Shown here: positions 14,411 through 37,538 of the stretch, piece by piece
How the letters are laid out: each line of letters begins with the position of its first letter
Position numbering within the stretch: the first letter of the stretch is position 1
From: a virus
Lineage: Duplodnaviria; Heunggongvirae; Uroviricota; Caudoviricetes
Virus record (IMG/VR): IMGVR_UViG_2925919700_000005
Coordinates: 1 to 38,422 of that record
Length of the DNA: 38,422 nucleotides
Strand: one strand, 5' to 3'
Made by a program: the position numbers and the translations under genes
The notes under the pieces: model-generated
What the model was told of the DNA's origin: nothing
Database searches by the model: none
The model's input: the letters and a program-made list of their open reading frames with translations, nothing else

Positions 14411-15244
14411 ATGAATATTACACAAGATAACTTAGACATTTTCACGGGGTCGCATGTTGAAGTCTCCGTGTCTACTATGGTGGATAACCAGCCGGATTTT
14501 TTCGATCCTGCATTTAGTCCTATCGAGAACATCGCAGCATTCCCGACGATAACCGAATCCACAGAGATCCAGACGTTAGAAGAGTATGATCAGGACGCTA
14601 CGGGTAAACTTGCTGGCTATCGTAAACTTGAATCAACTACGTTAGTAGTAAACCGTGTTCTGGATGACGAACATCAAGACATGTTGATGAAAGCGGTGAA
14701 TGATAAAACTCCTTTACGCTTTCGTATGTTCTATGTTGTGAACTCTGGTTACAGTGCTGCTAACACAGGTTACTACGTCATCTTTGACGCTTTCGTCTCG
14801 TCACATAAAACAAAATCCGGCGATAACAAAGCTGTAACACTGGAATTTAAACTTGAACCAGATGGCGGGATTTTGGCAAGGGGTATTGCTACCGAAGGCC
14901 GGATCTTACGTCAGGGTGATTTTGGTATTGGTGCTGGTGTAAATCCATTCACTGGTCCGATTGATAGCGAAGCATTAGCCGGAAACCGTTTCGTAACTTA
15001 TCAGGGATCAAGCGCATCTAATCCATTTAGTGCTGATACTTCACTAATTCACGTTCAACCTAATGAAGATGGTGGATGGCAATTAACTTGCACCGCTTCC
15101 GGCGCACCACGTTTACGAGTTCGCACAGTCCAGAAAGACGGTAATTCGGGATGGGTGAAAGTGTATTCCACAGAAGAAAAACCGACACCAGCCGAGATTG
15201 AAGCCGTTTCTATCCATGACCGGATCGATTTCGGGGAATACTGA
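14411..15244 (+). CDS. virion structural protein (277 aa); C-terminus shares a KPTPAEI motif with the tail fibre
   Basis: AAGGGGTAATA-ATG; C-terminal EEKPTPAEIEAVS versus fibre DKPTPAEIGAYS; hairpin and T-rich tract follow. Confidence 0.55.
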   Translation: MNITQDNLDIFTGSHVEVSVSTMVDNQPDFFDPAFSPIENIAAFPTITESTEIQTLEEYDQDATGKLAGYRKLESTTLVVNRVLDDEHQDMLMKAVNDKTPLRFRMFYVVNSGYSAANTGYYVIFDAFVSSHKTKSGDNKAVTLEFKLEPDGGILARGIATEGRILRQGDFGIGAGVNPFTGPIDSEALAGNRFVTYQGSSASNPFSADTSLIHVQPNEDGGWQLTCTASGAPRLRVRTVQKDGNSGWVKVYSTEEKPTPAEIEAVSIHDRIDFGEY

Positions 15245-15317: not shown

Positions 15318-18300
15318 ATGCAGTCGATCCAATTTAAACGAACAAATGTTTCTGGCAAAAAACCAACGCCGGAACAATTACAGGTCGGTGAGGTGGCAAT
15401 CAACCTTAAAGACCATGTTATTTTTACCAAAGACCGAGATCATGAAGTAGTTCAAATCTCTGTTTCTCCTGAAACTCACGCGGCACTAGAATCTAAAGTT
15501 GATGCTAACAAACAAGAATTGGATAGCACAATTGCAGTAAATGACCGCAATATTCACGCTAAAGTAGATGAAATTAAACAAACTACTGATTCTACTATCG
15601 CAGCAAATCACGCAGAAATTAACAATAAAGTTGATGTAATTAAACGCGAAACCGACGCGACAATCGAGGCCAATAAAAATAAAGCTGCTTCCGATCTTGC
15701 TGGTGTTAAAGCTGAATTGTCGGATACTATCAACGCTAATAAAAATGCGGCTGCTGTAGCAACTCAGGAACTGGACACCCGCATCAATAAAAAAGTTGAT
15801 GATATTAAATCCCGTACTGATGCAACCATCGCAAGCAATCACAAAGCAATCAATGACAAGGTTGATTTGATTAAGGCAGAAACTGACCGCACTATCGCAG
15901 CAAATCAAGCCTATGCGGAAAATCAGTTAACTGACACCTACAATAACCTTACTGGTGTGATTGCAGCTAATAAGCAAGAGGCAGCGGATAGCGTCGCAGC
16001 ATTAACCCGTGATGTTGAAGCCAAAAATTCAGCAATTCATAGCAAAGTTGACAATAACAAGTCTTACACTGATTCTGAACTTGCACGTTTAGAAAGCCGT
16101 ATTGATGCAGCCGATGGATCTGCTGATGGCAAGTACATCAAAAAACACGTAAACACTTATACTGATGGTTATTTGCTGTCTAAGACCGCAAACTATTTTG
16201 ATGATCCAAATGCGCGTAATCTTAATTACTTTGGTGCATTCCGCATGAATGACCTGGCGGGTCATATTGCAATGATCTTGCATGTTCCGCATCCATCTGG
16301 TGTTAATCATGCTCGTGGCTTTGAGTTCACTTATGGGTCTAATCCGGTTCATACGGTAAGAACATACGGCTATGATGAATTGGGTCATTTGGCATATTCT
16401 CACCGCATGTATCATGAAGGTGATAAACCTACTCCTGCCGAAATTGGCGCATATTCGAAAGCAGAAATTGACCGACTGTTCCAGAAGACGCTTAATTTTG
16501 GGATCGAGGGTGGTTGGTTTAAACTAGGCACTTTGACAATGCCACAGCAACACGGTCGTAGTGCTAAGATCCGCTTAGTTGGTGGTAACGGTTATAACGT
16601 CGGGATGAATGGACAAGCCAATATTATCGAATTGGTGATTCGATGCGGCAACAATAGCCCGAAAGGTGTTGTATTCAATGCGTATTATACTATTTGGCAT
16701 TATGAACAACATTTTTGCGCTATTCCAACCGATGGCGACAATTACGATCTTTACGCTTACTACGGTGCACATACAGGATTTGTTTTAGCAGAATATCAAG
16801 TTTCTTCCGGTGGTGTTTCTTTAAACCTGTTGGATACTCCTGAATATCTGGGTGGTGAAAAACCTGTTGCAGATGAAATTTTTGATGCTCTTAACATTTC
16901 ATCGTTCACTAACTTTAGCAACCGTGGAACGTTAAATTTTGCGGGAAACCATCAAGGCCAATATGACATTGAGCATTTGAACGAACAACAAACTAACAGC
17001 AAAAAGATGTTGCGTCGCTTCCGTAGTTCTGCTCCTGCCACTATCTGGCATGAGACAGTTGATGATAACGCATATCGTCTTGCTACTGGATACGAAGATA
17101 CAAATCAGGAATTATTGCTGACAGCAACAACCGGGTTACATGTCAAGAGATTAACATTGGATGGTGGTGCTGCTGGTGGAAATGCTGGTATTGATATTCG
17201 TCGAGGACCAAACGAATCAAGCCATTTTAATTTTATGGATTATCGAACTGGTCAAGATGTTCGTAATGGCTGGTTTGGTTTTGGTGATTTGACGACCAAA
17301 GATTTTATTTGGTGGAACGATAACGGTCAAAACTCGATAAACTTGATCGAAAACGGTGAATTGCATATTACTGGCGGTAAAGGCCAGAAAATTGTAATGA
17401 ATAGCGAAGTTGCATTATCTGAAAATGCTCGTTTGGCTGTTAAAGGTGGCAATTATGGCTTAATTTTTAGAAATGATGGTACTGGTTTCCATATACTGAC
17501 TACCGATTTAAAAGATTCTTTTGGAAATTGGAATAATCGTAGACCATTCAGCTATAATTTTGATGATGGTGGACTATATTTAGGTGGCACTGAAACTGCT
17601 CGTTGTTTGCATCTGGGAATTGATGGTAGCACCCGTCTTGAGGAGAACTTAGTTTTCAGGGCGGGATCTCGTCAATCAATGGACTATATTGAAATGATCC
17701 ATTGGGGTAACAGTAATACCGCTCGTGACAACGTTTTGAGTATGAAAGACTCGAAAGGATTCCTTGCTGAATTTGAACGCGTGGGTGGGACTAACGGCGT
17801 TAAAACCAGATTCTTTGGTGAAACCTTCACTGACGGTACATTATACCTAAATCAGATGAATAATAGCTCTGAACGATTCTCTATCAACAATTGGGGAAAT
17901 TCAGAAGTTGGACGCGCGGCAGTAATGGAAATCGGTGATTCCAAAGGTTATCACTTCTATACTGAACGCAGGACAGATAACAGTTTGGCGTTTGATGTTG
18001 CTGGCGCTTTTACTGTGCATGGACCTAACGGAATAACCATCAAAAACTCAACTGGTGCACGCCATATCTGGTTTAGAGATGATAGCGATGCAGAAAAGGC
18101 TGTTATCTGGGCTACAGATGAGGGTATTTTACATATACGAAATAATCATGGGGGTTCATTTAGTCATCACTTCCAGGGTGCAATGATTAAAGCGGGAGAG
18201 CAAGTTCCTTATAATAGTGAATACGCTCTTATCCGTGGTGAGGTTTCTGGTGGTGCATGGGATGACTGGCGCAACCGTCCTGCTGGTATTCTCTTAGATT

Positions 18301-18839
18301 GTCAGGATTCACATACCCAAGCATATTCAATTTGGAAAGCAACTCATTGGGGTGTTGATCATCTTGCGGCAATGGGTGTTCATGCTGGCGGTGGTCAAGC
18401 TACCGTAATGATGCATATGAACAAAGGCGGCTGGTATTCATGGTCTGCAAATGGTGATTTCACATCTAGTGCGTCGGTTTACTGTAACGATGTTTATATT
18501 CGTTCCGACCGTCGTCTGAAAATTAACGTTGAAGACTACGAAGAAAATGCGGTAGATAAGGTAAATAAACTAAAAGTTAAAACCTACGATAAAGTTAAGT
18601 CTCTTTCTGACCGCGAAGTCATCGCACATGAGATTGGTATTATCGCACAGGATTTACAAGAAATTTTACCGGAAGCTGTTAGCACTTCTAATGTCGGATC
18701 TCTTGATAACCCAGAAGAGATTTTAACAATTTCTAACTCTGCTGTGAACGCGCTTTTAATTAAAGCGGTCCAAGAAATGAGCGAAGAAAATAAACTTCTT
18801 CGTGAACGTCTTGCTGCAATTGAAGCTAAATTAGGGTAA
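15318..18839 (+). CDS. long tail fibre with C-terminal S74 intramolecular chaperone (autoproteolytic) domain
   Basis: N-terminal ~250 aa of ~22-residue repeats (KVDxIKxxTDxTIAANxxxIN); C-terminal YIRSDRRLKINVEDYE...LLIKAVQEMSEENKLLRERLAAIEAKLG is the S74 signature with a predicted cleavage at S|D. Confidence 0.85.
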   Translation: MQSIQFKRTNVSGKKPTPEQLQVGEVAINLKDHVIFTKDRDHEVVQISVSPETHAALESKVDANKQELDSTIAVNDRNIHAKVDEIKQTTDSTIAANHAEINNKVDVIKRETDATIEANKNKAASDLAGVKAELSDTINANKNAAAVATQELDTRINKKVDDIKSRTDATIASNHKAINDKVDLIKAETDRTIAANQAYAENQLTDTYNNLTGVIAANKQEAADSVAALTRDVEAKNSAIHSKVDNNKSYTDSELARLESRIDAADGSADGKYIKKHVNTYTDGYLLSKTANYFDDPNARNLNYFGAFRMNDLAGHIAMILHVPHPSGVNHARGFEFTYGSNPVHTVRTYGYDELGHLAYSHRMYHEGDKPTPAEIGAYSKAEIDRLFQKTLNFGIEGGWFKLGTLTMPQQHGRSAKIRLVGGNGYNVGMNGQANIIELVIRCGNNSPKGVVFNAYYTIWHYEQHFCAIPTDGDNYDLYAYYGAHTGFVLAEYQVSSGGVSLNLLDTPEYLGGEKPVADEIFDALNISSFTNFSNRGTLNFAGNHQGQYDIEHLNEQQTNSKKMLRRFRSSAPATIWHETVDDNAYRLATGYEDTNQELLLTATTGLHVKRLTLDGGAAGGNAGIDIRRGPNESSHFNFMDYRTGQDVRNGWFGFGDLTTKDFIWWNDNGQNSINLIENGELHITGGKGQKIVMNSEVALSENARLAVKGGNYGLIFRNDGTGFHILTTDLKDSFGNWNNRRPFSYNFDDGGLYLGGTETARCLHLGIDGSTRLEENLVFRAGSRQSMDYIEMIHWGNSNTARDNVLSMKDSKGFLAEFERVGGTNGVKTRFFGETFTDGTLYLNQMNNSSERFSINNWGNSEVGRAAVMEIGDSKGYHFYTERRTDNSLAFDVAGAFTVHGPNGITIKNSTGARHIWFRDDSDAEKAVIWATDEGILHIRNNHGGSFSHHFQGAMIKAGEQVPYNSEYALIRGEVSGGAWDDWRNRPAGILLDCQDSHTQAYSIWKATHWGVDHLAAMGVHAGGGQATVMMHMNKGGWYSWSANGDFTSSASVYCNDVYIRSDRRLKINVEDYEENAVDKVNKLKVKTYDKVKSLSDREVIAHEIGIIAQDLQEILPEAVSTSNVGSLDNPEEILTISNSAVNALLIKAVQEMSEENKLLRERLAAIEAKLG

Positions 18840-18877
18840 TTGGAAAGCGGGGAGAAATCTCCGCTAAGGATTCTTAT

Positions 18878-19174
18878 ATGGGATATTGGGTAAGTAGTGA
18901 AATTAATACTAAAATCGATGCTTTAAAATGGCATGTGTTTGATATTCCTAATGGATATGTTCCCGGACGTGCTGGTGTTGCCGTTTTGCGGCATACCGCT
19001 CGTGATGGTTGGGGCGATATGCATATTTTCGTTGACGGTGTGGTCGCCGCGCGTCGTCGTGGTGGTGGGGATTGGGGATTTACGGTTAATGCGTTTGTTC
19101 CTGCTGGATGTACTGTCACCTTTGGTCATGGGGGTGTCGGTGGTATTGAATACTTTAAATTTATGGAGTTTTAA
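18878..19174 (+). CDS. glycine-rich small protein, paralog 1 of 3 (98 aa)
   Basis: TAAGGA SD; shares M-x-x-W-V, W[FH]xIPNG[WY], GGGD and a basic aromatic C-terminus with the next two ORFs. Confidence 0.65.
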   Translation: MGYWVSSEINTKIDALKWHVFDIPNGYVPGRAGVAVLRHTARDGWGDMHIFVDGVVAARRRGGGDWGFTVNAFVPAGCTVTFGHGGVGGIEYFKFMEF

Positions 19175-19176
19175 TT

Positions 19177-19482
19177 ATGGCTGGATGGGTTGCTGGAAGA
19201 ATGGCTAATGCCATTAGCATTTATGCTAATGGCGGCTGGTTTGGTATCCCTAATGGTTGGGTGGCGGATTCATGCGGTATTGTGTCTGTTCATGCCGAAG
19301 CCGTTGGTGGCGGTGGTGACCTGGACGCAGAATTATATGTAAACGGTACTCTCGAATCAGGTCATCACGCTGGTAATGCAGGAAGTTGGGGAGCAAGTTC
19401 TTTAGTTGGTGCTGGCGCTACTGTCAGTTTTAGTATTGGTAAAGGAAGTTTAAACCACTTCCAATTTAGGAGAATGCAATAA
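19177..19482 (+). CDS. glycine-rich small protein, paralog 2 of 3 (101 aa)
   Basis: Starts 2 nt after the paralog-1 stop; GIPNGWVADSCGIVSVHAEAVGGGGD. Confidence 0.65.
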   Translation: MAGWVAGRMANAISIYANGGWFGIPNGWVADSCGIVSVHAEAVGGGGDLDAELYVNGTLESGHHAGNAGSWGASSLVGAGATVSFSIGKGSLNHFQFRRMQ

Positions 19483-19784
19483 TGGCATTTTGGGTAGATG
19501 GTGCTTTAGGTAATAGAGCAGGTAAAGCGAATCAAGGATGGTTTGATATTCCTAACGGTTGGACACCTGACGCTTTCGGCACGGTTTCATTTGGTGCTCA
19601 TTCTTCTGGTGGTGGCGGTGGTGACTCAGAATTGCTTTTGCATGGCTTTTGTGTGTCTGGAAGTCATAAGGGTCATGATTGGGGACAGATCCATTCTTGT
19701 ATTGTGCCGCAAGGGGCGGTAATTACCGTTAGCACAAATAGGGGGGTCGCTCATCTTCGTTATAGACGTTTGAGCAACCGCTAA
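19482..19784 (+). CDS. glycine-rich small protein, paralog 3 of 3 (100 aa)
   Basis: ATG overlaps the paralog-2 stop (TAATG); DIPNGWTPDAFGTVSFGAHSSGGGGGD. Confidence 0.65.
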   Translation: MAFWVDGALGNRAGKANQGWFDIPNGWTPDAFGTVSFGAHSSGGGGGDSELLLHGFCVSGSHKGHDWGQIHSCIVPQGAVITVSTNRGVAHLRYRRLSNR

Positions 19785-19838: not shown

Positions 19839-20312
19839 ATGACTACTAAATTTGATATTTTCTCTGGTGGCCTCGTTGGTCTGTTTCTGCAAGAAGACGT
19901 AAGCAATAAAGACCTTGATGCTGAAACCTATCTGGAAATCCCAGAATGCGCAGCGTTCCCGGAAACTGGTGTAGAACGTTCTACGATCGATGTTCCTAAC
20001 TTCTCTGGTGCTTATAACCGTAAGCTGGTTGGTCGTATGTCTGTACCGGATATCGAACTTTCGATCAACTACATGCCGGGTAACGAAGTACACGAAAAAC
20101 TGATTAAAGCAACCGAAGACGGTAAGCGCGTACAGCTTAAAATTGCTTACTACATCGATGCTACGAAAAAATCTGGTGTACATATCGCTTATAACGGCTT
20201 CCTGTCTAAAACTACCATGACTGGTGGTGAGGATGCTGTAGTAGGCCGTACCTTCACCTTTGTAGTAGATGGTGCTCCGGTTAAACAAGCTGTTTTCCAG
20301 AAAGTCGTCTAA
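19839..20312 (+). CDS. major tail tube protein (lambda gpV N-domain-like)
   Basis: Lies directly before the chaperone and tape measure genes; IELSINYMPGN resembles lambda V TSFTLAWMPGE (from memory); AAGGAA SD; strong terminator follows. Confidence 0.6.
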   Translation: MTTKFDIFSGGLVGLFLQEDVSNKDLDAETYLEIPECAAFPETGVERSTIDVPNFSGAYNRKLVGRMSVPDIELSINYMPGNEVHEKLIKATEDGKRVQLKIAYYIDATKKSGVHIAYNGFLSKTTMTGGEDAVVGRTFTFVVDGAPVKQAVFQKVV

Positions 20313-20615: not shown

Positions 20616-21944
20616 CTGAGAGATCCCCTCATAATTTCCCCAAAACGTAACCATGTGTGAATAGATTTTGAGTAAGCAGGGTTGCAGCCACGAGTGAGTC
20701 TTCCCTTGTTATTGTGTAGCCAGAATGCCGCAAAACTTCCATGCCTAAGCGAACTGTTGAGAGTACGTTTCGATTTCTGACTGTGTTAGCCTGGAAGTGC
20801 TTGTCCCAACCTTGTTTCTGAGCATGAACGCCCGCAAGCCAACATGTTAGTTGAAGCATCAGGGCGATTAGCAGCATGATATCAAAACGCTCTGAGCTGC
20901 TCGTTCGGCTATGGCGTAGGCCTAGTCCGTAGGCAGGACTTTTCAAGTCTCGGAAGGTTTCTTCAATCTGCATTCGCTTCGAATAGATATTAACAAGTTG
21001 TTTGGGTGTTCGAATTTCAACAGGTAAGTTAGTTGCTAGAATCCATGGCTCCTTTGCCGACGCTGAGTAGATTTTAGGTGACGGGTGGTGACAATGAGTC
21101 CGTGTCGAGCGCTGATTTTTTCGGCCTTTAGAGCGAGATTTATACAATAGAATTTGGCATGAGATTGGATTGCTTTTAGTCAGCCTCTTATAGCCTAAAG
21201 TCTTTGAGTGACTAGATGACATATCATGTAAGTTGCTGATAGGTTTCCAGTTTTCCGCTCCTAGGTCTGCATATTGTACTTTTCCTCTTACTCGACTTAA
21301 CCAGTACCAACCCAGCTTCTCAACGGATTTATACCATGGCACTTTAAAGCCAGCATCACTGACAATGAGCGGTGTGGTGTTACTCGGTAGAATGCTCGCA
21401 AGGTCGGCTAGAAATTGGTCATGAGCTTTCTTTGAACATTGCTCTGAAAGCGGGAACGCTTTCTCATAAAGAGTAACAGAACGACCGTGTAGTGCGACTG
21501 AAGCTCGCAATACCATAAGCCGTTTTTGCTCACGGATATCAGACCAGTCAACAAGTACAATGGGCATCGTATTGCCCGAACAGATAAAGCTAGCATGCCA
21601 ACGGTATACAGCGAGTCGCTCTTTGTGGAGGTGACGATTACCTAACAATCGGTCGATTCGTTTGATGTTATGTTTTGTTCTCGCTTTGGTTGGCAGGTTA
21701 CGGCCAAGTTCGGTAAGAGTGAGAGTTTTACAGTCAAGTAAGGCGTGGCAAGCCAACGTTAAGCTGTTGAGTCGTTTTAAGTGTAATTCGGGGCAGAATT
21801 GGTAAAGAGAGTCGTGTAAAATATCGAGTTCGCACATTTTGTTGTCTGATTATTGATTTTTGGCGAAACCATTTGATCATATGACAAGATGTGTATCTAC
21901 CTTAACTTAATGATTTTGATAAAAATCATTAGGGGATTCATCAG
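20616..21944 (-). mobile_element. IS10 insertion sequence, complete (1329 bp)
   Basis: Ends CTGAGAGATCCCCTCATAATTTCCCC (inside end, 20616) and ...AAAATCATTAGGGGATTCATCAG (outside end, 21944); length 1329 bp; encodes the 402-aa IS10 transposase. Confidence 0.97.
20629..21837 (-). CDS. IS10 transposase
   Basis: 402-aa translation MCELDILHDSLYQFCPELHLKRL...HGYVLGKL matches the IS10/Tn10 transposase as I recall it; start is 107 bp inside the outside end. Confidence 0.97.
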   Translation of the reverse strand: MCELDILHDSLYQFCPELHLKRLNSLTLACHALLDCKTLTLTELGRNLPTKARTKHNIKRIDRLLGNRHLHKERLAVYRWHASFICSGNTMPIVLVDWSDIREQKRLMVLRASVALHGRSVTLYEKAFPLSEQCSKKAHDQFLADLASILPSNTTPLIVSDAGFKVPWYKSVEKLGWYWLSRVRGKVQYADLGAENWKPISNLHDMSSSHSKTLGYKRLTKSNPISCQILLYKSRSKGRKNQRSTRTHCHHPSPKIYSASAKEPWILATNLPVEIRTPKQLVNIYSKRMQIEETFRDLKSPAYGLGLRHSRTSSSERFDIMLLIALMLQLTCWLAGVHAQKQGWDKHFQANTVRNRNVLSTVRLGMEVLRHSGYTITREDSLVAATLLTQNLFTHGYVLGKL

Positions 21945-26164: not shown

Positions 26165-26584
26165 ATGCTAAAAACTAGGCTTATCACCGATTACATCAAT
26201 TCTTTAATAGGTCAGGAGTTCGTTCAAGGCGAGAATGATTGCAATCTAATTGCATGTAAGATCATCGATATTCTCGCTGGTACTGACCTATATAATTCTC
26301 TTTATAAAAAATATTCAACTAAAGAAGAAGGCTTGAAAATCTGCAAAGAATTAAGCGGGTATTCAAATATCCTTCAACCAATTAAGAAACATTTCAAATT
26401 AGTCACTGATGATTTACAGGACGGCGACTTACTGGTCACAGCCCACAAATTAGGGAACCGCAAATATTATTCCGTAGTTCCTCATTATTCCGGTTATGGC
26501 CTCGTTGAAGAAGATGGTATCTGGATGACCATTCCTGTTTCAGACATTGAATATGAACAAGTTTATAGATTCGGGGGTGAATAA
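26165..26584 (+). CDS. tail assembly protein with NlpC/P60-like Cys-His motif (lambda gpK-like C-terminal domain)
   Basis: GGAGG SD; QGENDCNLIACKI (candidate catalytic Cys) and a downstream His (TAHKLG); stop overlaps the J start. Confidence 0.5.
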   Translation: MLKTRLITDYINSLIGQEFVQGENDCNLIACKIIDILAGTDLYNSLYKKYSTKEEGLKICKELSGYSNILQPIKKHFKLVTDDLQDGDLLVTAHKLGNRKYYSVVPHYSGYGLVEEDGIWMTIPVSDIEYEQVYRFGGE

Positions 26585-29500
26585 TGGGATTTGAAGTATT
26601 GGTAGGCGCGGTTATTGCTGGTGCGTCTGCTGGGATGGCTGCTGCTGCAACATTTTCTGTTATGACCGCAGTCGCTATCGGTATGGCTGCTGGTGCAATG
26701 ACCTTGATCGCTTCCACTGTAGGCGCACCAAAAACACCTAAAGTACAAAGCCCAGATAATGCGGTGACACTAGGAACATCAAACGATCCTAAGACAGTAT
26801 TACCCGTCCTTTTCGGTACTACCCGCACGGGTGCAATCTGCGTTTACAAAGCAATTTCACAGCGTGAAAACAACAAACTGGTACAAATTTTTGCTATTTC
26901 AGAAGGTGAGATCGATCACTTTAAAGCACTGCACATCGATAATAAAAATGTTCTCATTAGCCAGAATATGACAATTCGTGATGGTGTTCTCGATAAAGGA
27001 AACATTAAAGAAGAATACCGCAAAGTGTTAGAAGTCGAGTTTCGCACGGGTAAAAATCCTAACACCGCATTGGATTTAGCTAAACATCATTTGGGCGCAG
27101 ATTGGGATGATCGGTATCAGGGTAACGGCATTGCGACCATGTGTATTGTTTTACGTCGTGATGACAAATCTTTGGCTGCTGGTGTTGATATTCTCCAGCC
27201 TAATAGCCAGGTAGCGGTCGATGTTATGGGCTTAAAAATCCGTAACCTCGAAACCAATGCTATTGAGGCAAGCACTAACGGCGTGGACCAGATTTTCCAT
27301 TACCTAACAAATGAAAAATATGGTCTATCAGTACCAATTGAAAACATTAACGTTGATTCATTCCTGAAAGTACGTAAGCAAGTACGCCAGATGGATTTGC
27401 ATTCAAACGGTGCATGTGATCCGAACGCCAGCTTTAAAGAGAACTTGACTAGCCTTATGCAGACTTTCGGCGGGGTAATGTTCGAATCCTTCGGAAGAAT
27501 TACCCTGAAACTGGATGCTCCTGATATTGTTAAGCATACCTTCAATGAAGACAATATTATGATGGGTAAAGTATCACTGAAAACAGGTGGCACTAACGGT
27601 TATTTCAATACCATTAACGCGATGTATCAAGAACCATCAATTGACTATTCCGAGCAAATGCTACGTTATCCGGCTGATGCTGAAAACGATGCTACTATTC
27701 GTCAAGATGGTCGAATTATCGCTAAAGATATTGAATATCGTTTTGTTAAGTCTAAAGCCCAGATTGATAAACTCGCGAGCATTGAGCGAAATAAATCTCG
27801 TATCACTCAGGTTATCAGCTTCATGACTACTGACGCATTCACTGCCGAAGTGTGGGATGTTATTAGCGTTACCTATGATGAATTGAAACTGAATAATTCA
27901 CTTTGGCGCATTACTGCAATTGATCGCTCGATTGATTCTGGTATTGCTGGGATGATGACTATCACCGCCACAGAATATAATTCTCAGGTTTATACTGACC
28001 TGAACTATGCGGCGACTCCAGACAATAGACCTACCGGTTTACCGGATTCAATGACAGTACAGAAACCGACTAATTTCAGAATTAAGGCAACTGGTGAGAC
28101 AATCCACGGTAAAAACGTAACTTTGACATGGGACGCACCGGAAGATTTTAACCGCTACGGTTTCCAGATTGATTATCGTGTGAGTGGATCACCTAACTGG
28201 ATTAAGCTGGGACAGACTTCACAGCAAATTTTCAATATCAATGCACTGGCAAAAGATCGCTCCTACGATTATCGCGTTTGTGCTTTCGGTATTATTGCTC
28301 GTTCCGAATGGGTGGAACTGGTTAACCAGAATCCAGAAGTTACCTATGAACTGCCTACTCCAGTGATCCGCATCAAAAATCAGGGTAGTTCACCTGGTAC
28401 TTTCGAAGGCAATGATCTGATTATCGAATGGGAAAATCAGCAACAATTAGATGTGATGATCAACGGCGAAGCTAACAAGTTTAGTGACCTGTTTGAAGCA
28501 TACATTATCAAGGTGACTAACAAGGCTGGTAAGTCTATTCAGTACCGTACCCGCGATCCTGAATCATGGACCTATACGCTTGATATGAACCAGTTTAACG
28601 GCCTTTCCCGTGAATTGACGGTAGAAGTATCGGCTAAGGGCTATAACAACTCAGAGAGCGCCCCAGCGCGTTTAGTGGCTATCAACCCACAACATAAGCC
28701 GATGAAAGGTTTTAGTGCGCGTGGTGGCTTTAATACTGCGTTTGTTAGCTGGGCGGATGACGTAGAACATGACTATGCAGGGTCAATCATTCAGTATGCA
28801 ACCGATAACACTTTCTCCGATGCAAGGGCAGTGACTACCAATAGCGTTAGTCATACTTCCTTTGATTTGGCTGACGGTGATTATTATATCCGTGGTGCTC
28901 ACTACGATATTTTCGGTATGGATGATGCTGTTTGGTCTGAACCGTATTTCATGCAAATGAAATCTACCATTAGCTGGGACGATCAGGACAAAGAAGCACT
29001 TGAAGACCTGATTGGTTTACAAGATCGCTTAGATGAAACTATCGCGGATGCTATTGCTCAAGCTGGCGCTAATGCCGATGCTAAAATTGATGCAATGCAT
29101 AAGCAAATCACTACCGAAACCGGAAAGACGGTCCAAGCCTCAGCCGATACTCTCAAGAGTCTGATTGCTACCAGCGAGCAAGCTAGCTCCACTAAGATTG
29201 ATCAGGTTAAAGCTGAACTGAAAGGCGATATCACCAATGAAGTTAGCGCATCTGCTACTACCCTGAAACAAGCAATTGCTACCAGTGAGGCAGCAAGCGC
29301 AAGTAAGATCGACCAAGTTCGGGTAGAAATGGATGGCAAGATTGCTGGTGTGAATCAGGAAGCAGATGTAAAAATCGATGCTTTGAAAGGAACCATTAAC
29401 AGCAAATACAATCTAGCGGTTAATGCAGATGGTCGCGTGGCTGGTATTCATATGAGCGCAACCAACGATCCGGCGCAACCGACGAGAATCATCTTTACGG

Positions 29501-30360
29501 CTGATAAAATCGCGGTAGCTCCACAGAACGGATCGGAAGTATGCCCGTTTGGTATCGAAGATAACAAAGTTTATCTCGATAATGCGATGATTCGTAATGC
29601 TGCAATTGGCACAGCCCAGATTAGTGATGCTAGTATCACCACGGCTAAAATCGGCACAGCCCAGATTAACGGCGCTCACATCCAACACGCACAGATCGGA
29701 ACAGGTCATATTATTGATGGCTCTATCGATAATGCTAAAATTGGTAACTATATCCAGTCTTATAACTGGAATGGTAACGATGGATGGTATATCGGGAAGG
29801 ATGGCACTTGTCATTTTAGACACGCTAACATTCGTGGTCATTTGGTGGCTGATTCCGGCGAAATGAACAACGTAACGATTAATTCAAGTTGCCGCATTTT
29901 GGGTATGCTTGATGCTAATCAGGTGCGTGGTGACTTCGTGAAAGCTATTGGTCGTCGATTCCCACATTGGGACGAAAACCCATCATTGGGCTATCCCGGT
30001 TATCCGCAAGGTACAATCACTGTTCGAATTGAAGATGATCACCCGTTTGATCGTCAGATTATCGTTCCGGCTATTAGCTTTGGTGGTCTTAATGCGCGTG
30101 AAGGCTCGAATAACAATACTTACTATGATAACTGTCGCTTGATTGTTCGCAAGAACGGTGCTGAATTATATAACCGTGCATATGGTAGACAGACTGGATT
30201 GTATAGTGCTGTTATTGATATGCCAGCCGGACACGGACCAGTTACGCTAACTTTTGAAGTAAGTTCAAGCGCAATCAACAACTGGACTCCCAGCACATGG
30301 ATCAGCGATCTAACGGTAATGGTAACTAAGAAAGCCGCTACTGGTATTTCTGTTTCTTAA
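26584..30360 (+). CDS. central tail fibre / host specificity protein (lambda J-like) with an N-terminal gpI-like Gly/Ala-rich segment
   Basis: C-terminus DDHPFDRQIIVPAISFGG...MPAGHGPVTLTFEVSS...DLTVMVTKKAATGISVS closely parallels the lambda J receptor-binding C-terminus (from memory); fibronectin-III-like repeats mid-protein; N-terminal 90 aa resemble the lambda I C-terminal region. Confidence 0.9.
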   Translation: MGFEVLVGAVIAGASAGMAAAATFSVMTAVAIGMAAGAMTLIASTVGAPKTPKVQSPDNAVTLGTSNDPKTVLPVLFGTTRTGAICVYKAISQRENNKLVQIFAISEGEIDHFKALHIDNKNVLISQNMTIRDGVLDKGNIKEEYRKVLEVEFRTGKNPNTALDLAKHHLGADWDDRYQGNGIATMCIVLRRDDKSLAAGVDILQPNSQVAVDVMGLKIRNLETNAIEASTNGVDQIFHYLTNEKYGLSVPIENINVDSFLKVRKQVRQMDLHSNGACDPNASFKENLTSLMQTFGGVMFESFGRITLKLDAPDIVKHTFNEDNIMMGKVSLKTGGTNGYFNTINAMYQEPSIDYSEQMLRYPADAENDATIRQDGRIIAKDIEYRFVKSKAQIDKLASIERNKSRITQVISFMTTDAFTAEVWDVISVTYDELKLNNSLWRITAIDRSIDSGIAGMMTITATEYNSQVYTDLNYAATPDNRPTGLPDSMTVQKPTNFRIKATGETIHGKNVTLTWDAPEDFNRYGFQIDYRVSGSPNWIKLGQTSQQIFNINALAKDRSYDYRVCAFGIIARSEWVELVNQNPEVTYELPTPVIRIKNQGSSPGTFEGNDLIIEWENQQQLDVMINGEANKFSDLFEAYIIKVTNKAGKSIQYRTRDPESWTYTLDMNQFNGLSRELTVEVSAKGYNNSESAPARLVAINPQHKPMKGFSARGGFNTAFVSWADDVEHDYAGSIIQYATDNTFSDARAVTTNSVSHTSFDLADGDYYIRGAHYDIFGMDDAVWSEPYFMQMKSTISWDDQDKEALEDLIGLQDRLDETIADAIAQAGANADAKIDAMHKQITTETGKTVQASADTLKSLIATSEQASSTKIDQVKAELKGDITNEVSASATTLKQAIATSEAASASKIDQVRVEMDGKIAGVNQEADVKIDALKGTINSKYNLAVNADGRVAGIHMSATNDPAQPTRIIFTADKIAVAPQNGSEVCPFGIEDNKVYLDNAMIRNAAIGTAQISDASITTAKIGTAQINGAHIQHAQIGTGHIIDGSIDNAKIGNYIQSYNWNGNDGWYIGKDGTCHFRHANIRGHLVADSGEMNNVTINSSCRILGMLDANQVRGDFVKAIGRRFPHWDENPSLGYPGYPQGTITVRIEDDHPFDRQIIVPAISFGGLNAREGSNNNTYYDNCRLIVRKNGAELYNRAYGRQTGLYSAVIDMPAGHGPVTLTFEVSSSAINNWTPSTWISDLTVMVTKKAATGISVS

Positions 30361-32364: not shown

Positions 32365-32396
32365 AACAAAAGCGCCTCTAGTGGGCGCTTTTTTGT
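32364..32396. terminator. Bidirectional rho-independent terminator between convergent genes
   Basis: AAGCGCC-TCTAGT-GGGCGCTT flanked by an A-run upstream and a T-run downstream. Confidence 0.7.
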
Positions 32397-33886
32397 TATA
32401 TGGCAATTGTTTTAGTTGCATAGCTGAACTTGTCGGTTAGATAATAGCGGATTCTCTCAAGTGCATGTTTTACCGCATAATTTTTATGCTTGACTTTTCC
32501 GTTACGACCGAATATACACAGATGATCGATAAGATCCCAGACCGTTGCAATGTCTTTCGAACCATGTTTACGCAATGCACGACCGATACTCTGACGAACG
32601 ATAGTTGATTCCTTCACGGGATGACCGAAAATAACATGGTGCAAATTCTTAATTGAAACACCAGTAGAGAAAACACCATAGGATGCAACGCAAATGATCC
32701 CTGTTTCCCCTTCCGCTAATTTCTTAAATTCATCACGTTCTTCTGTCTTAACTCCACCGTCAATATAATAAACCTTGTCGTGTACCTTCTGTAACGCGTC
32801 ATACATAAGTTTTCCGTGCTTAGTATTGCGGAACATCAGGAATACGTTTTCTCCCTTCTTAGCGAGTTTTAGCGCCAAATTACAAGCAAACTTATTTCGT
32901 CGTGGATTAGACGTAATATACTTGATCTCTTCCGCATATTCTCTACCCTTAACCGCGCTACATTCCTCATCGGTATAACGAAGGAAAAGACAGTTAATTT
33001 TCAGTTTTGTCACCTGCCCTTCTTCCATCAGGCGGTCAATACTCACGATCTTAGAAATATCACCGAAAAGCCCGACATACTGCATTAAATGGCACTTTGA
33101 TTCTTTCGGGGAACCAGTCATGCCGATCTTAAATTGGCAATGATTCATTCCGTTAATGATATTGGTAATATTTTTGGCACTAGCCTTATGCGATTCATCA
33201 ACTATCAACATTCCATATTGTTTGAACCATTCAGGAGGCATCTTGCACGCTGATTGCCAGGTACTAACCGTGATTAACCTGTCTCCCGGATGTTTCCCGC
33301 TACCACTCATCATTGTATGAATTGCTTCATAAGGGAATAGCCTATAATCGATGAAATCATCCCTCATTTGAACCACTAGCGATGTAGTAGGGACAATGAT
33401 TAACACTTTTCCGGTGTAATGCTCTAAGTACCAACGAGACAGCATACAAGCAATCAATGACTTACCCGCACTGGTAGGAAGAACCAGCATTCTACGGCGA
33501 TTATGAATACCCTGAAAGACTGCCTCCCTTTGATACCAGTAAGGATTGATTTTATTGGAACCGGAATACACTTCTAGGGAATCAATCCATTCATTAATCG
33601 CGTCTTTGGTTACATCTTCCTTCTCAAGCAATCGCGGGTCAATCCAGACTGAATAGCCCATATTTTTAACGAAGACACCCAACGTTTTTAATAGTCCAAT
33701 TGGTAGGGTATTTTCATGCGTAAACAGTCTTATTCGTCCATCCCAGCCGGAATACTTGTAGCGGGGGCTAAACCTAGCCCCTTCAACCTCAAACGAGAAA
33801 TAATCCCTTAATTCCATTCCGATAGAAGGAGAGCAATCAACCTTAACGAAACTGTAATCTTGAAAATGAATTTTAATATCTTGCAT
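32396..33886 (-). CDS. UvsW-like SF2 DNA helicase
   Basis: Walker A LPTSAGKS, IIVPTT, DExH box IVDESH and VWDLIDH; overall resemblance to T4 UvsW as recalled; start set to ATG 33886, overlapping the upstream stop. Confidence 0.8.
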   Translation of the reverse strand: MQDIKIHFQDYSFVKVDCSPSIGMELRDYFSFEVEGARFSPRYKYSGWDGRIRLFTHENTLPIGLLKTLGVFVKNMGYSVWIDPRLLEKEDVTKDAINEWIDSLEVYSGSNKINPYWYQREAVFQGIHNRRRMLVLPTSAGKSLIACMLSRWYLEHYTGKVLIIVPTTSLVVQMRDDFIDYRLFPYEAIHTMMSGSGKHPGDRLITVSTWQSACKMPPEWFKQYGMLIVDESHKASAKNITNIINGMNHCQFKIGMTGSPKESKCHLMQYVGLFGDISKIVSIDRLMEEGQVTKLKINCLFLRYTDEECSAVKGREYAEEIKYITSNPRRNKFACNLALKLAKKGENVFLMFRNTKHGKLMYDALQKVHDKVYYIDGGVKTEERDEFKKLAEGETGIICVASYGVFSTGVSIKNLHHVIFGHPVKESTIVRQSIGRALRKHGSKDIATVWDLIDHLCIFGRNGKVKHKNYAVKHALERIRYYLTDKFSYATKTIAI

Positions 33887-34455
33887 TAGTTCCACTCCAC
33901 ACTTGCAATATTCTTTATATTGTTTAGTGATTTATTGCAGTAGTGGAATGTTTCAGTTTTGCCGTATTCAATCCCGCCTATACCCACATCCAGTAATCTC
34001 TTTATTGCTCTTTCAGTGGCTAAAGCATGTTTCATTGATGGCATTTCACCAGCAAAGACAATATCAAAGTTATGACCGGGATTGCGTACACCCAGATTAA
34101 TGCGTCGCTTGATGATTGACTTTGTTACACCAAATTTACCAATATCCCCTGATTTCATTACATAGAGATAAGGCACACCCGCTTTATATTGAAAGTAATC
34201 ACTTTTGAGACATGCACAGCGTTTACCTTCATTAAGCAGGTTGGTAGCTGATTTGTCGGCTCTATTGCCGCATCGGGTACATGTAAGAGCAATTCTTGAA
34301 TGAAGCCCTTTAAACTCACCCAGAAAGCCATGAAAGACTAACGGTAAGTCCTTCTCTTTGATGTGAGTCAGAATGCGTTGTTCTAATGCCGATGGAGTTA
34401 CAGCACGGGAGGATTTAGGAGTAAAAACAATATCTTTAGCCATTACTGGAATCAT
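33886..34455 (-). CDS. GIY-YIG-like (T5orf172-type) protein with N-terminal zinc ribbon; possible homing endonuclease or DNA-binding nuclease
   Basis: CTRCGN...CAC Cys cluster followed by YLYVMKSGDIGKFGVTKSIIKRR (GIY-YIG-like Y-x-Y...K-F-G-x-T...R pattern). Confidence 0.5.
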   Translation of the reverse strand: MIPVMAKDIVFTPKSSRAVTPSALEQRILTHIKEKDLPLVFHGFLGEFKGLHSRIALTCTRCGNRADKSATNLLNEGKRCACLKSDYFQYKAGVPYLYVMKSGDIGKFGVTKSIIKRRINLGVRNPGHNFDIVFAGEMPSMKHALATERAIKRLLDVGIGGIEYGKTETFHYCNKSLNNIKNIASVEWN

Positions 34456-35858: not shown

Positions 35859-37538
35859 TTAAATTCCAAATTCCTGTAATGGACCTGGTATTTCCTCTTC
35901 TGGTTTCCAGTTCTTATCTGTCAGCATGTCTAAACATGGATGCAGAACAAGCCCGTTACTCTCCAGAATCTGCCTATCATTGATAGTTTTCAAATCGACA
36001 AAGATTTGTCCTTTCCTCGTTCCTCTTGAATTTTCTATTACAACTCTCTGGGTCTTTCCATCGATGTATTCCAGTACAAACAAGTTTTTGTTTCTGTCAA
36101 TCCTGCTACACCCGATCCGCTTTAGAGCTTGCTTAATCTTAAACCGGACCTTTAGTCGTTCCTCGTTGTAAACATCTTCTAAATCAAATTCTGCGAGCTT
36201 CTCCCAGCCTTGAGAGTCAACAGAATACATTTCCTCTTCTGCCATCTTGATCTGATTGTAGAGTGTTTCACGCTCGCTATTGAGGGTAGTAATCTGATCG
36301 GCTAGTTCCTTCGTTGCTCCTGTCATAGCAGAAAGGGCAATCAGGTTATCAATCTTGCGTGATATTTCATCAACCTGTACTTTCAACGCCGGAACCGGAT
36401 TAGCCTTATCCTCAGCAATCCAGATTTTATCAGCCAGCAATTGCAATACAGCTTTCTCTAATTGATCACCTCGAAAACTCCAGTTTGGATGCTCGCAATC
36501 AAGTCTACGTGAACGGGTCGCATCACATGTATAACGATACTGGTCAGAACGTTTGTTCGTTCCCTTCACTTTAACCATAGCGCAACCGCAATGATCACAT
36601 TTCAATAGGCCAATACCACTAAGCAGGGGGATCGGTTTAACTTCTTCCTTGTCTCCAAAGTTCCATGCTCTAGCACCAATATTTTTCTTAAGGTGATAGA
36701 ACGTAGCATCATCAATAACACGAGGGTAATAATCCTTTAACTCATAGTTAACACCATCAACAGAGACCTCCTTGATACCAATCAAAGCGCGGGTATGAAA
36801 CAACCTTTCAACCATTGCCCGTGACCATTTTGAATGCTTCTTGTTGCTTACTGCTGGTGGTGGTGCATATGTCTCGTTAAGGTGATCCAGTATTTCGGCG
36901 GTTGAACGTCCATTCTTCCGTAATTCCACAATCTCCTGAACAACAGGGAAGTACACCGGATGAGGCAGCACATAACCGGAAGTGGTATCAGTCCACCACA
37001 TATTCTTTCCAACTTCCTCGATTGCCACTGCCGGATTCTGGGGATTTTCTTGATGCGATTTAATCTTAATCAGTGCGCTTGAATTAGTACGATTGCGCTT
37101 AGTCTGGCTTTCCTCATTACCACGGATGAATAAAAGGATGGAGAACATCAGGTCCATCGGGTTAGCGGTAACAGTATCCAGCGAGTAGATCTTGTTATCC
37201 ATGCCAGTAACAATGGTTATCCCCCTACGGATTATCGAAAGGAATAACTCCTGCGCACTGACAATATCGGCACGGGATAAACGGTCCAAGTTTTCAATGA
37301 ATAGCCAGCTACCAACAGGAACGGATCTACCAATTGCATCAAGGAAACGAGATAGCGCCCCTGTTTTAGAGTTAGCACCTTTAAACGCAGATACACCCAG
37401 ATCCTGATAATCATTTACCAGTTCTAAGTCATACTTTGCCGCAATCTCTCTCGCCATCCTGATTTGTCGTTCATAACTCGAACCATCACTCTGACGCATA
37501 GACGAGAAGCGAATATACGAATATAGTTTAGTTTTCAT
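35859..37538 (-). CDS. large serine recombinase (resolvase/invertase-type catalytic domain + recombinase domain + zinc ribbon)
   Basis: N-terminal YIRFSSMRQSDGSSYERQ (catalytic Ser motif), ENLDRLSRAD, Cys cluster CDHCGCAMV...YRYTCD, C-terminal coiled coil; 559 aa. Confidence 0.85.
   Translation of the reverse strand: MKTKLYSYIRFSSMRQSDGSSYERQIRMAREIAAKYDLELVNDYQDLGVSAFKGANSKTGALSRFLDAIGRSVPVGSWLFIENLDRLSRADIVSAQELFLSIIRRGITIVTGMDNKIYSLDTVTANPMDLMFSILLFIRGNEESQTKRNRTNSSALIKIKSHQENPQNPAVAIEEVGKNMWWTDTTSGYVLPHPVYFPVVQEIVELRKNGRSTAEILDHLNETYAPPPAVSNKKHSKWSRAMVERLFHTRALIGIKEVSVDGVNYELKDYYPRVIDDATFYHLKKNIGARAWNFGDKEEVKPIPLLSGIGLLKCDHCGCAMVKVKGTNKRSDQYRYTCDATRSRRLDCEHPNWSFRGDQLEKAVLQLLADKIWIAEDKANPVPALKVQVDEISRKIDNLIALSAMTGATKELADQITTLNSERETLYNQIKMAEEEMYSVDSQGWEKLAEFDLEDVYNEERLKVRFKIKQALKRIGCSRIDRNKNLFVLEYIDGKTQRVVIENSRGTRKGQIFVDLKTINDRQILESNGLVLHPCLDMLTDKNWKPEEEIPGPLQEFGI

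Follow-up and report, generated by a model that had tools for sequence, protein, structure and literature searches.

We analysed a 38,422-nucleotide stretch of viral DNA (hereafter the window), which corresponds to a siphovirus-type Escherichia coli prophage with a lambda-family portal, a protease-capsid fusion and a large serine recombinase. The window also encodes a J-like central tip protein with a GpJ C-terminal receptor-binding domain. Other E. coli chromosomes hold the same prophage family with identical gene order; at the nucleotide level the prophage was not found in phage or plasmid collections, and the nearest relative of its terminase is only 44% identical. Directly downstream of a side tail fibre gene lie three small tandem genes, designated ORFs A, B and C and referred to collectively as the cassette. 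Their coordinates are given in Table 1 together with those of the neighbouring features.

Table 1 Features of the side tail fibre gene and the downstream cassette (positions within the window)
Feature	Position	Strand	Description
Side tail fibre gene	15318..18839	+	1173 aa; mosaic; PHROG long tail fibre distal subunit (E 5e-135)
Mature fibre distal end	17800..18503	+	aa 828-1062, ending ...NDVYIR; T2/T6-type gp37 'base', the gp38 dock in related phages
Self-cleaving intramolecular chaperone	18504..18839	+	aa 1063-1173, begins SDRRLK; PF13884; aligns to S16 gp37 (PDB 6F45)
Last ~19 codons of the fibre (...EENKLLRERLAAIEAKLG)	18783..18839	+	nucleotide identity to G2248 and prophage L003 begins at 18783
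Hairpin	18846..18865	+	8 bp, GAAA loop, between fibre stop and ORF A; no T-run behind it
ORF A	18878-19174	+	98 aa; ends FKFMEF; predicted N-terminal helix (residues 2-15, with Trp4), then predicted C1q/TNF-like jelly roll
ORF B	19177-19482	+	101 aa; paralog of ORF A; C-terminus FQFRRMQ; positional orthologs in every intact locus
ORF C	19482-19784	+	100 aa; paralog; highest conservation among A, B and C; C-terminus LRYRRLSNR

A preliminary description of this DNA, made from the sequence alone, had reported three tandem, paralogous, glycine-rich genes of about 100 codons at this site, and our analysis confirmed all three on the plus strand. Pairwise BLASTP among the products gave E values of 1e-9 (A/B), 9e-15 (B/C) and 4e-8 (A/C), so that the three are clearly paralogous, far beyond chance. 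Glycine accounts for 17-20% of each protein, and A, B and C share the motif F-x-IPNG-[WY] as well as Trp4 and a number of glycines, these residues being invariant. The described N-terminal M-x-x-W-V holds for all three, whose N-terminal helices read GYWVSSEIN (A), AGWVAGRMA (B) and AFWVDGALG (C). By contrast, the remaining shared features attributed to the trio apply to B and C but not to A: instead of W[FH]xIPNG[WY], A carries WHVFDIPNGY; where B and C have a GGGGD tract, the aligned position of A reads DGWGD, and its GGGD lies elsewhere; and the C-terminus, basic and aromatic in B and C, is aromatic but acidic in A. Trp4 is invariant across a 27-sequence enterobacterial alignment, and some divergent members of the family have L, Y, M or Q in its place. 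The translational coupling had been described correctly, with a 2-nt gap from the stop codon of A to the ATG of B and a TAATG overlap between B and C, and a Shine-Dalgarno-like AGGA/GGAG is located 8-13 nt 5' of each of the three starts. No signal peptide or membrane segment was apparent on reading the sequences of A, B and C. ORFs in other frames overlap the three genes.

Comparison with orthologs yielded dN/dS values of 0.07-0.37 for A, B and C (5-60% synonymous divergence and beyond), indicating that all three are real, constrained genes and that the overlapping ORFs in other frames are therefore noise. Over the same comparisons, hypervariable segments were absent from all three proteins. 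Two allele classes of A and B were observed, and against the second E. coli allele class dN was 0.04 for C and 0.14-0.17 for A and B. Recombination also occurs within the cassette, as in locus L022, which combines A from one class with B and C from the other.

The product of the upstream fibre gene harbors the Pfam domains Gp34_trimer and Peptidase_S74 (PF13884, residues 1063-1121, E 1.9e-14), the latter with the Ser-Lys dyad motif SDxxLK at the cleavage site, which bears out the self-cleaving chaperone proposed in the preliminary description. Through nucleotide matches to G37-3, IME340 and G2248, we delimited the mosaic parts of this fibre: a prophage-specific N-terminus; a T-even gp37-like shaft from about position 16404, resembling that of Krischvirus G37-3; and a T6/IME340-type distal part with its chaperone (17800-18794), which has 96% nucleotide identity to gp37 of the Tequatrovirus phages IME340, FL33 and NBG2. 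The last mosaic part is a short 3' tail that recurs in other fibres followed by the cassette. From position 18783 onward, including the whole cassette, the window matches both prophage L003 and Krischvirus G2248 at 96% nucleotide identity. Among E. coli phages and prophages, the ...EENKLLRERLAAIEAKLG tail of the fibre moves with the cassette and not with the fibre tip, the upstream tips being unrelated, whereas gp38-linked fibres carry the terminal sequence ...EEIKELKTPLFTKIARKISKYFKF instead. A third kind of fibre tail is found at the Salmonella loci, which rules out a functional dependence of the cassette on the last 15 residues of the fibre. Four fibre terminal types were distinguished among the E. 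coli cassette loci, and the fibres of G2248, UPWr_E1 and L003 possess an additional distal module of ~85 aa beyond the canonical gp37 base, because of which any docking surface would need to be re-created in G2248-type fibres. The hairpin between the fibre stop codon and ORF A has an RNA fold energy of -13.3 kcal/mol (z -3.2), and in G2248 a putative terminator has been annotated at the corresponding place. A consensus terminator scan did not call this hairpin, and a promoter and terminator scan around the cassette returned nothing meaningful.

We then compared 31 loci, comprising the window, other E. coli prophages, three Krischviruses plus phage KFS-EC, two Salmonella prophages and nine divergent metagenome contigs (25-45% identity). 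The divergent loci were located via contigs encoding the protein relatives; a search for related loci gave close relatives only in viral and metagenome contigs, and nothing in genome contigs. Exactly three members in the order A-B-C were present in all 26 complete loci, down to about 25% identity, with intergenic gaps of 0-4 nt or short overlaps, and three loci cut by contig ends (L021, L027 and L028) agree as far as their sequence reaches. In 29 of the 29 loci where it is visible, the upstream gene ends in a Peptidase_S74-type chaperone domain (...R/SDxxLK, the slash marking the cleavage site), and YIR/SDRRLK at the fibre cleavage site is conserved across loci. The settings include siphovirus prophages, Krischvirus myoviruses and one T7-type podovirus fibre context (L034), assigned as such because its fibre has a T7-tail-fibre N-terminal domain besides S74. 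The first, second and third genes cluster by position, with A forming one clade and B and C lying near each other, so that the triplication is older than all known members. The C-termini are likewise position-specific, being F-K-F-M-E-F in A and F-+-F-R-R-M-x in B and C.

This comparison of copy number and divergence among relatives, which had been proposed as a check, argues against the earlier suggestion of a diversifying small-protein family, since the copy number and the A-B-C order are fixed, the triplication is ancient and the genes are under purifying selection. The fixed trio is what an obligate three-subunit assembly would give, and it is the opposite of a diversifying family. A further version of that suggestion, that the family is diversifying rapidly or decaying, without a set function, or that the ORFs are spurious, could draw on the small, glycine-rich nature of the ORFs with their alternative-frame overlaps, and on two decayed cassettes, namely that of KFS-EC (an A-C deletion fusion with a frameshift) and that of prophage L014 (a shortened B). 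It is, however, contradicted by the dN/dS values and the invariant number and order of the genes, as well as by about 15 divergent clusters that retain length and motifs and by a confident AlphaFold2 (AF2) model of ORF A, and we consider it barely credible.

To place the family more broadly, a word-indexed search of 5.8 billion proteins was used, which returned 31 clusters, all from Escherichia, Shigella or Salmonella and all named 'hypothetical'. An exhaustive HMM profile search of 1.84 billion representatives gave 23 matches, of which about 15 are relatives of ~100 aa; the long matches (P0039, P0046, P0053 and similar) were rejected as unrelated repeat proteins summing weak matches, two of which were inspected. 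By tblastn with C against 50,697 phage records, the intact cassette was detected solely in G2248, G37-3 and UPWr_E1, with a remnant in KFS-EC. The cassette was also present in 23 of 5,426 complete E. coli genomes, always on the chromosome and, among the matches listed, annotated throughout as three hypothetical proteins. Pfam, NCBIfam and PADLOC scans of A, B and C produced no match (no Pfam family at E <= 0.1, C1q included), and a PHROG scan produced no usable one, its sole match being a family of unknown function (E 0.0014). A profile search of PDB sequences with the family gave no meaningful match, the 'Pizza' designer-protein matches that it returned being spurious, and no paper describing these genes was found in a literature search. 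The A/B/C family, its predicted fold and the proposed three-subunit solution are thus unannotated in every library searched; the general arrangement, in which a self-processed fibre receives its cap or adhesin from another gene, is already known from gp38.

The structure prediction that had been suggested for these proteins was run on the ORF A monomer, using the 27-sequence alignment, and gave a confident model (pLDDT 83) with a helix at residues 2-15 followed by a beta-sandwich. The N-terminal 20 residues have a low pLDDT of 61-66 in this monomer model, and the glycine runs appear in it as short turns. Structural matches to the model included collagen VIII NC1 (score 7.9), C1QTNF5 (7.8) and C1q A and C (7.7), as well as many TNF ligands and Bacillus BclA. 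ORF A is therefore predicted to form a compact C1q/TNF-like jelly roll behind an N-terminal helix, a fold which, in the model, is typical of trimeric distal knobs. C1q/TNF-like domains are characteristically trimeric, and C1q A/B/C and lymphotoxin alpha1-beta2 are heterotrimers of paralogs. C1q itself comprises about 130 residues on a collagen stalk, whereas the jelly roll of ORF A has about 80 residues and is preceded by a short helix; the two probably have an independent origin or are extremely distantly related. In a Foldseek comparison with predicted viral structures, the matches were mostly unnamed phage proteins, among which tail fibre proteins were the commonest named category and two were C1q-domain proteins.

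In most T-even-like phages, the chaperone of gp37 cleaves itself off and one monomer of the gp38 adhesin then caps the fibre (PMC9569957). The attachment domain of S16 gp38 has three helices, each with a conserved Trp at its apex, and docking takes place through these three residues (PMC6851490); a T2-type fibre lacking gp38 is not infective, plaques being formed only if gp38 is supplied (PMC12892980, Fig. 6A). The fibre of the window ends in this type of base: the last 150 aa of its mature part are 97.3% identical to gp37 of IME340, which is followed there by the gp38 adhesin, and its chaperone domain is 93% identical to that of IME340, a phage without the cassette. Similarly, the last 150 aa of the mature fibre of prophage L013, which carries A-B-C, are 92% identical to gp37 of Tequatrovirus EO1, where gp38 is the next gene, and 416 T-even phage records, those of PP01, AR1 and RB51 among them, share this type of fibre end. 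Near-identical fibre ends are thus paired with gp38 in some genomes and with A-B-C in others. The slot after gp37 is occupied by gp38 in Tequatrovirus; the place between gp37 and dc5/holin is taken by the cassette in G2248, G37-3 and UPWr_E1.

No homology between the two solutions was detected. A comparison of the 27-sequence family profile with RB32 gp38 using hhalign gave a probability of 0.3%, and gp38 tblastn found nothing in the window. When the gp38 helices SGWVGSSAV, RWMSQAAG and CWMSQFAG were scored against a profile of the A/B/C N-termini, one of the three, the first, showed a resemblance (top 0.1-0.4% of 805 background windows), a likeness that may serve as a lead rather than a test. 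The cassette resembles gp38 (T2/T6/S16/PP01-type, PDB 6F45) in being encoded directly after a gp37-type fibre with a self-cleaving S74 domain, in its glycine richness and in being partnered by fibre ends that are 92-97% identical. The known gp38, however, is a single monomer of ~260 aa with a three-helix attachment domain, a beta-helix, a polyglycine-II sandwich and hypervariable loops, whereas the cassette encodes three proteins of ~100 aa, each combining a single helix with a predicted jelly roll and lacking hypervariability. The polyglycine-II sandwich that characterizes gp38 is not seen in the AF2 model of ORF A, which is a beta-sandwich jelly roll.

Krischvirus provided a natural comparison between the two. 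In at least 30 Krischvirus records, among them RB49, Phi1, JSE, ECD7 and GEC-3S, gp38 is located about 55 kb from gp37 at a site flanked by genes of 291 nt and 222 nt, consistent with a recent report (bioRxiv 10.64898/2026.04.02.716166). For the gp38-bearing members, the region after gp37 was checked directly in RB49, where the cassette is absent (dc5 follows, then holin) and gp38 is at the distant site. In G2248, G37-3 and UPWr_E1, the cassette is intact and the distant site, recognized by its orthologous flanks, is empty, with a 61-nt spacer; a gp38 tblastn over the whole 170-kb G2248 genome was negative. The fibre base of G37-3 is of the type found in RB32, RB49 and IME340. In these genomes, the cassette and gp38 are mutually exclusive within Krischvirus. 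A broken cassette (A-C deletion plus frameshift) together with a 259-aa gp38 at the distant site was found in KFS-EC, the single case of this combination. Given that T2-type fibres depend on gp38 for infectivity (PMC12892980), the lytic phages that carry the cassette must replace the gp38 function, and the cassette is the sole candidate at the locus for doing so.

Based on these observations, we somewhat favour a model in which A, B and C assemble into a trimeric knob at a ratio of 1:1:1; placed on the fibre once the chaperone has been cleaved off, this cap would be a split analogue of gp38. The three proteins would be made in equal amounts from the coupled ORFs, while the homotrimeric fibre would fold with the help of its C-terminal Peptidase_S74 chaperone, which would then cut itself off at ...YIR/SD. 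An A-B-C trimer could dock on the exposed three-fold end of the fibre via three helices, each headed by the conserved Trp, mirroring the docking of T2/S16-type gp38, in which three Trp residues on three helices enter three equivalent pockets of gp37; the use of Trp-tipped helices on a three-fold base by the cassette is proposed by analogy. Consistent with such a docking element are the invariance of Trp4 in the enterobacterial alignment, the low pLDDT of the N-terminus in the monomer model and the likeness to the first gp38 helix; the replacement of Trp in some divergent members and the restriction of this likeness to one of three gp38 helices count against it. The jelly-roll knob would become the distal, host-facing end of the fibre and act as an adhesin or contribute to one. 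Hetero-oligomerisation, fibre docking, virion presence and receptor binding of A-B-C are all inferred, and it is the invariant gene trio that suggests an A-B-C trimer. The stricter form of the model, an obligate A-B-C heterotrimeric C1q/TNF-like knob on a homotrimeric fibre, is held more tentatively, as is the possibility that it represents a third way to build the receptor-binding tip of T-even-type and other S74 fibres, beside the needle of T4 gp37 and the monomeric gp38 cap. On the same tentative footing, the product would be a heterotrimeric adhesin, whose three different subunits would present an asymmetric binding face on a symmetric fibre. To our knowledge, no heterotrimeric phage adhesin has been described.

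The preliminary description had listed fibre-tip adhesins or accessory receptor-binding modules among its possibilities, and this is the reading best supported by context, since the cassette occupies the gp38 slot, follows a gp38-binding-type fibre end (97% identical base), excludes gp38 in Krischvirus and has, in ORF A, a predicted knob-type fold. Nevertheless, the conservation of the cassette beside swapped tips, with no hypervariability, is as compatible with a generic capping or assembly function as with a specific adhesin. One such role, which we consider unlikely, is that of non-virion assembly factors that help to fold, trimerise or mature the tip, or assist in freeing the S74 domain, and leave the fibre afterwards in the manner of T4 gp38, Mu/lambda Tfa and Pam3 gp25. 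Strong conservation next to exchangeable fibre tips would suggest such a generic function, the last ~19 codons of the chaperone domain always move with the cassette in E. coli, and an S74 domain is always present where the cassette occurs. T4 gp38, lambda/Mu/P2 Tfa and Pam3 gp25 are also, like the cassette genes, small genes immediately downstream of a fibre gene, and Pam3 gp25 is a trimeric beta-sandwich chaperone absent from virions (PMC9608196). These chaperones, however, are encoded by a single gene and serve fibres that have no intramolecular chaperone, whereas the cassette is a fixed trio after an S74 fibre. In IME340, which has no cassette, this fibre end and its chaperone domain are nonetheless functional, and the Salmonella loci keep the cassette despite their different chaperone tail. 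The S74 fibres of T5 pb1 and the K1F endosialidase are known to fold by the intramolecular chaperone alone. Matches of A, B and C to the Tfa or T4-gp38 chaperone families are absent from Pfam, PHROG and NCBIfam, the cassette excludes the adhesin-type gp38, and the predicted fold of ORF A is of the distal knob type and not of a known fibre chaperone type. The earlier argument, by which the presence of a self-cleaving chaperone speaks against a simple assembly factor, is reasonable, the situation being as in T2/S16-type gp37 with gp38 (PMC9569957, PMC6851490).

The composition of the knob itself admits a further alternative, in which A, B and C are each homotrimeric and represent three alternative caps, so that different fibres of one virion have different specificities. 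C1q/TNF-like domains are commonly homotrimeric, a virion carries 3-6 fibres, and the two allele classes of A and B and the intra-cassette recombination in L022 would fit such a scheme. Under this scheme the number and order of the genes should vary; yet three genes in fixed order with position-specific C-termini persist across deep divergence, and their tight translational coupling suggests equimolar synthesis, which leaves alternative caps as an improbable arrangement. A single-gene counterpart of the proposed knob is Pam3 gp24 (myocyanophage, PDB 7YPX), a trimer with N-terminal trimerising and docking helices followed by TNF-like and glycine-rich host-recognition domains, which its authors superposed on S16 gp38 (PMC9608196). 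Unlike the cassette, Pam3 gp24 is a homotrimer of one protein of ~280 aa that is attached to the baseplate and needs the chaperone gp25; it does not cap a second fibre, and its sequence is unrelated to A, B and C.

Accessory genes often adjoin fibre genes, and the tip of the fibre is swapped independently of the cassette, both of which would also be expected if the cassette were cargo unrelated to the fibre (a moron, or a superinfection exclusion, anti-defence or lysis accessory module) that hitch-hikes beside a recombination-prone gene. We regard such cargo as very improbable. The cassette occurs only directly after S74 fibres, on siphovirus-, myovirus- and podovirus-type backbones, and it anticorrelates with gp38. 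In addition, the proteins have no signal peptide or membrane segment, and thus no envelope route for receptor masking; PADLOC returned no match; and in the prophage the cassette lies inside the tail operon, distant from any lysis genes. A collar role like that of T5 p132 was also considered and was ruled out, given that the cassette is found after myovirus gp37 as well and moves with the 3' end of the fibre gene.

At present, gp37, gp38 and gp12 are the proteins from which host range is read and engineered in T-even-like phages, and on which receptor-prediction models are trained. In the phages and prophages of this study the fibre end is of the gp38 type, yet gp38 is missing and an unannotated three-gene module is carried in its place. 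If this module is a tip adhesin, it would be a missing determinant in host-range prediction for these phages and a compact, exchangeable part for fibre engineering, and a three-fold fibre would be capped by three small, different subunits and not by one asymmetric monomer. The 96% nucleotide identity between the parts concerned indicates that fibre parts are exchanged directly between temperate siphovirus prophages and lytic T4-like phages. Since three cultured phages (G2248, G37-3 and UPWr_E1) carry the intact module, the idea is directly testable.

Comparison of the side tail fibre gene with its relatives revealed a patchwork whose junctions are sharp at the nucleotide level, joining prophage-type sequence to segments resembling those of Krischvirus and Tequatrovirus phages. 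This structure shows that temperate siphoviruses have recently exchanged fibre sequence with lytic T4-like phages.

Features of the fibre region and the rest of the window
Feature	Position	Strand	Remarks
Tail-tube-like gene	14411-15244		277 aa; N-terminal half tube-like; just upstream of fibre; PHROG 158
Fibre gene	15318-18839		Patchwork
Fibre N-terminus			Prophage-type
Fibre shaft	from ~16404		Krischvirus G37-3-like
Fibre tip and chaperone	17800-18794		Tequatrovirus IME340-like
Fibre 3' tail	from 18783		G2248-like
Hairpin	18846-18865		8-bp, GAAA tetraloop; between fibre stop codon and ORF A
Tube protein gene	19839-20312		157 aa; downstream of fibre and cassette; PHROG 158
IS10 copy	20616-21944		1329 bp
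IS10 transposase ORF	20629-21837	-	
Central tail tip protein	26584-30360		1258 aa; lambda GpJ C-terminal receptor-binding domain, PF12421, E 2e-36
UvsW-like helicase	32396-33895	-	UvsW_N, ResIII and Helicase_C
Large serine recombinase	35859-37538	-	

We observed further variation at the fibre C-termini of G2248, CUVET21-37 and UPWr_E1 (loci L002, L003 and L006), where the canonical T2-type terminal domain is internal and is followed, before the self-cleavage site of the chaperone, by an additional module of ~85 aa. This module likewise begins with an ...SWG... motif and ends in ...RDIYIR; it resembles a terminal module that has been duplicated or stacked.

The three-gene cassette (ORFs A, B and C) lies downstream of the fibre. 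Locus L022 (1425-2331) shows recombination inside it, since its A is the window-type allele whereas its B and C both belong to the second allele class. Phage KFS-EC retains a remnant (L005 4379-4808) in which residues 1-89 of A are joined, at the codons of a glycine run, to C from residue ~47, with a frameshift after the fusion. At the distant site where Krischvirus phages usually carry gp38, it also encodes a 259-aa gp38 adhesin (L038 7142-7918) that MH560358.1 labels 'hypothetical'. One divergent locus from metagenomic data (L032 1375-4083; L033 2497-3177) has, directly after the cassette, a gene for a 902-aa protein that contains an alanine-rich, coiled-coil-like stretch, had no match in Pfam and may be a second fibre.

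The hairpin preceding ORF A (-13.3 kcal/mol, z -3.2) lacks a 3' T-run, and the equivalent site in G2248 carries a terminator annotation; a possible role of the hairpin is to reduce or stabilise expression of the cassette compared with that of the fibre. Fibre and cassette are bracketed by two tail-tube-like genes of the same PHROG. In T5, p140 forms a tube-like ring to which the side fibres are anchored, and by analogy the 277-aa protein could be such a ring.

Since the central tail tip protein carries a GpJ receptor-binding domain, the phage would have two distinct devices for recognising its host: one is this central tip, the other the capped side fibres. At its right end, the window harbors the UvsW-like helicase and the large serine recombinase, the latter probably the prophage integrase.

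Bordered on both sides by a 9-bp target duplication (GGCACTGTA), the IS10 copy splits a gene of ~102 aa that follows the tail tube gene and is whole in the related E. coli prophage L003. From its position, we guess that this gene may encode a tail assembly chaperone, in which case the prophage may have lost the capacity to assemble tails.
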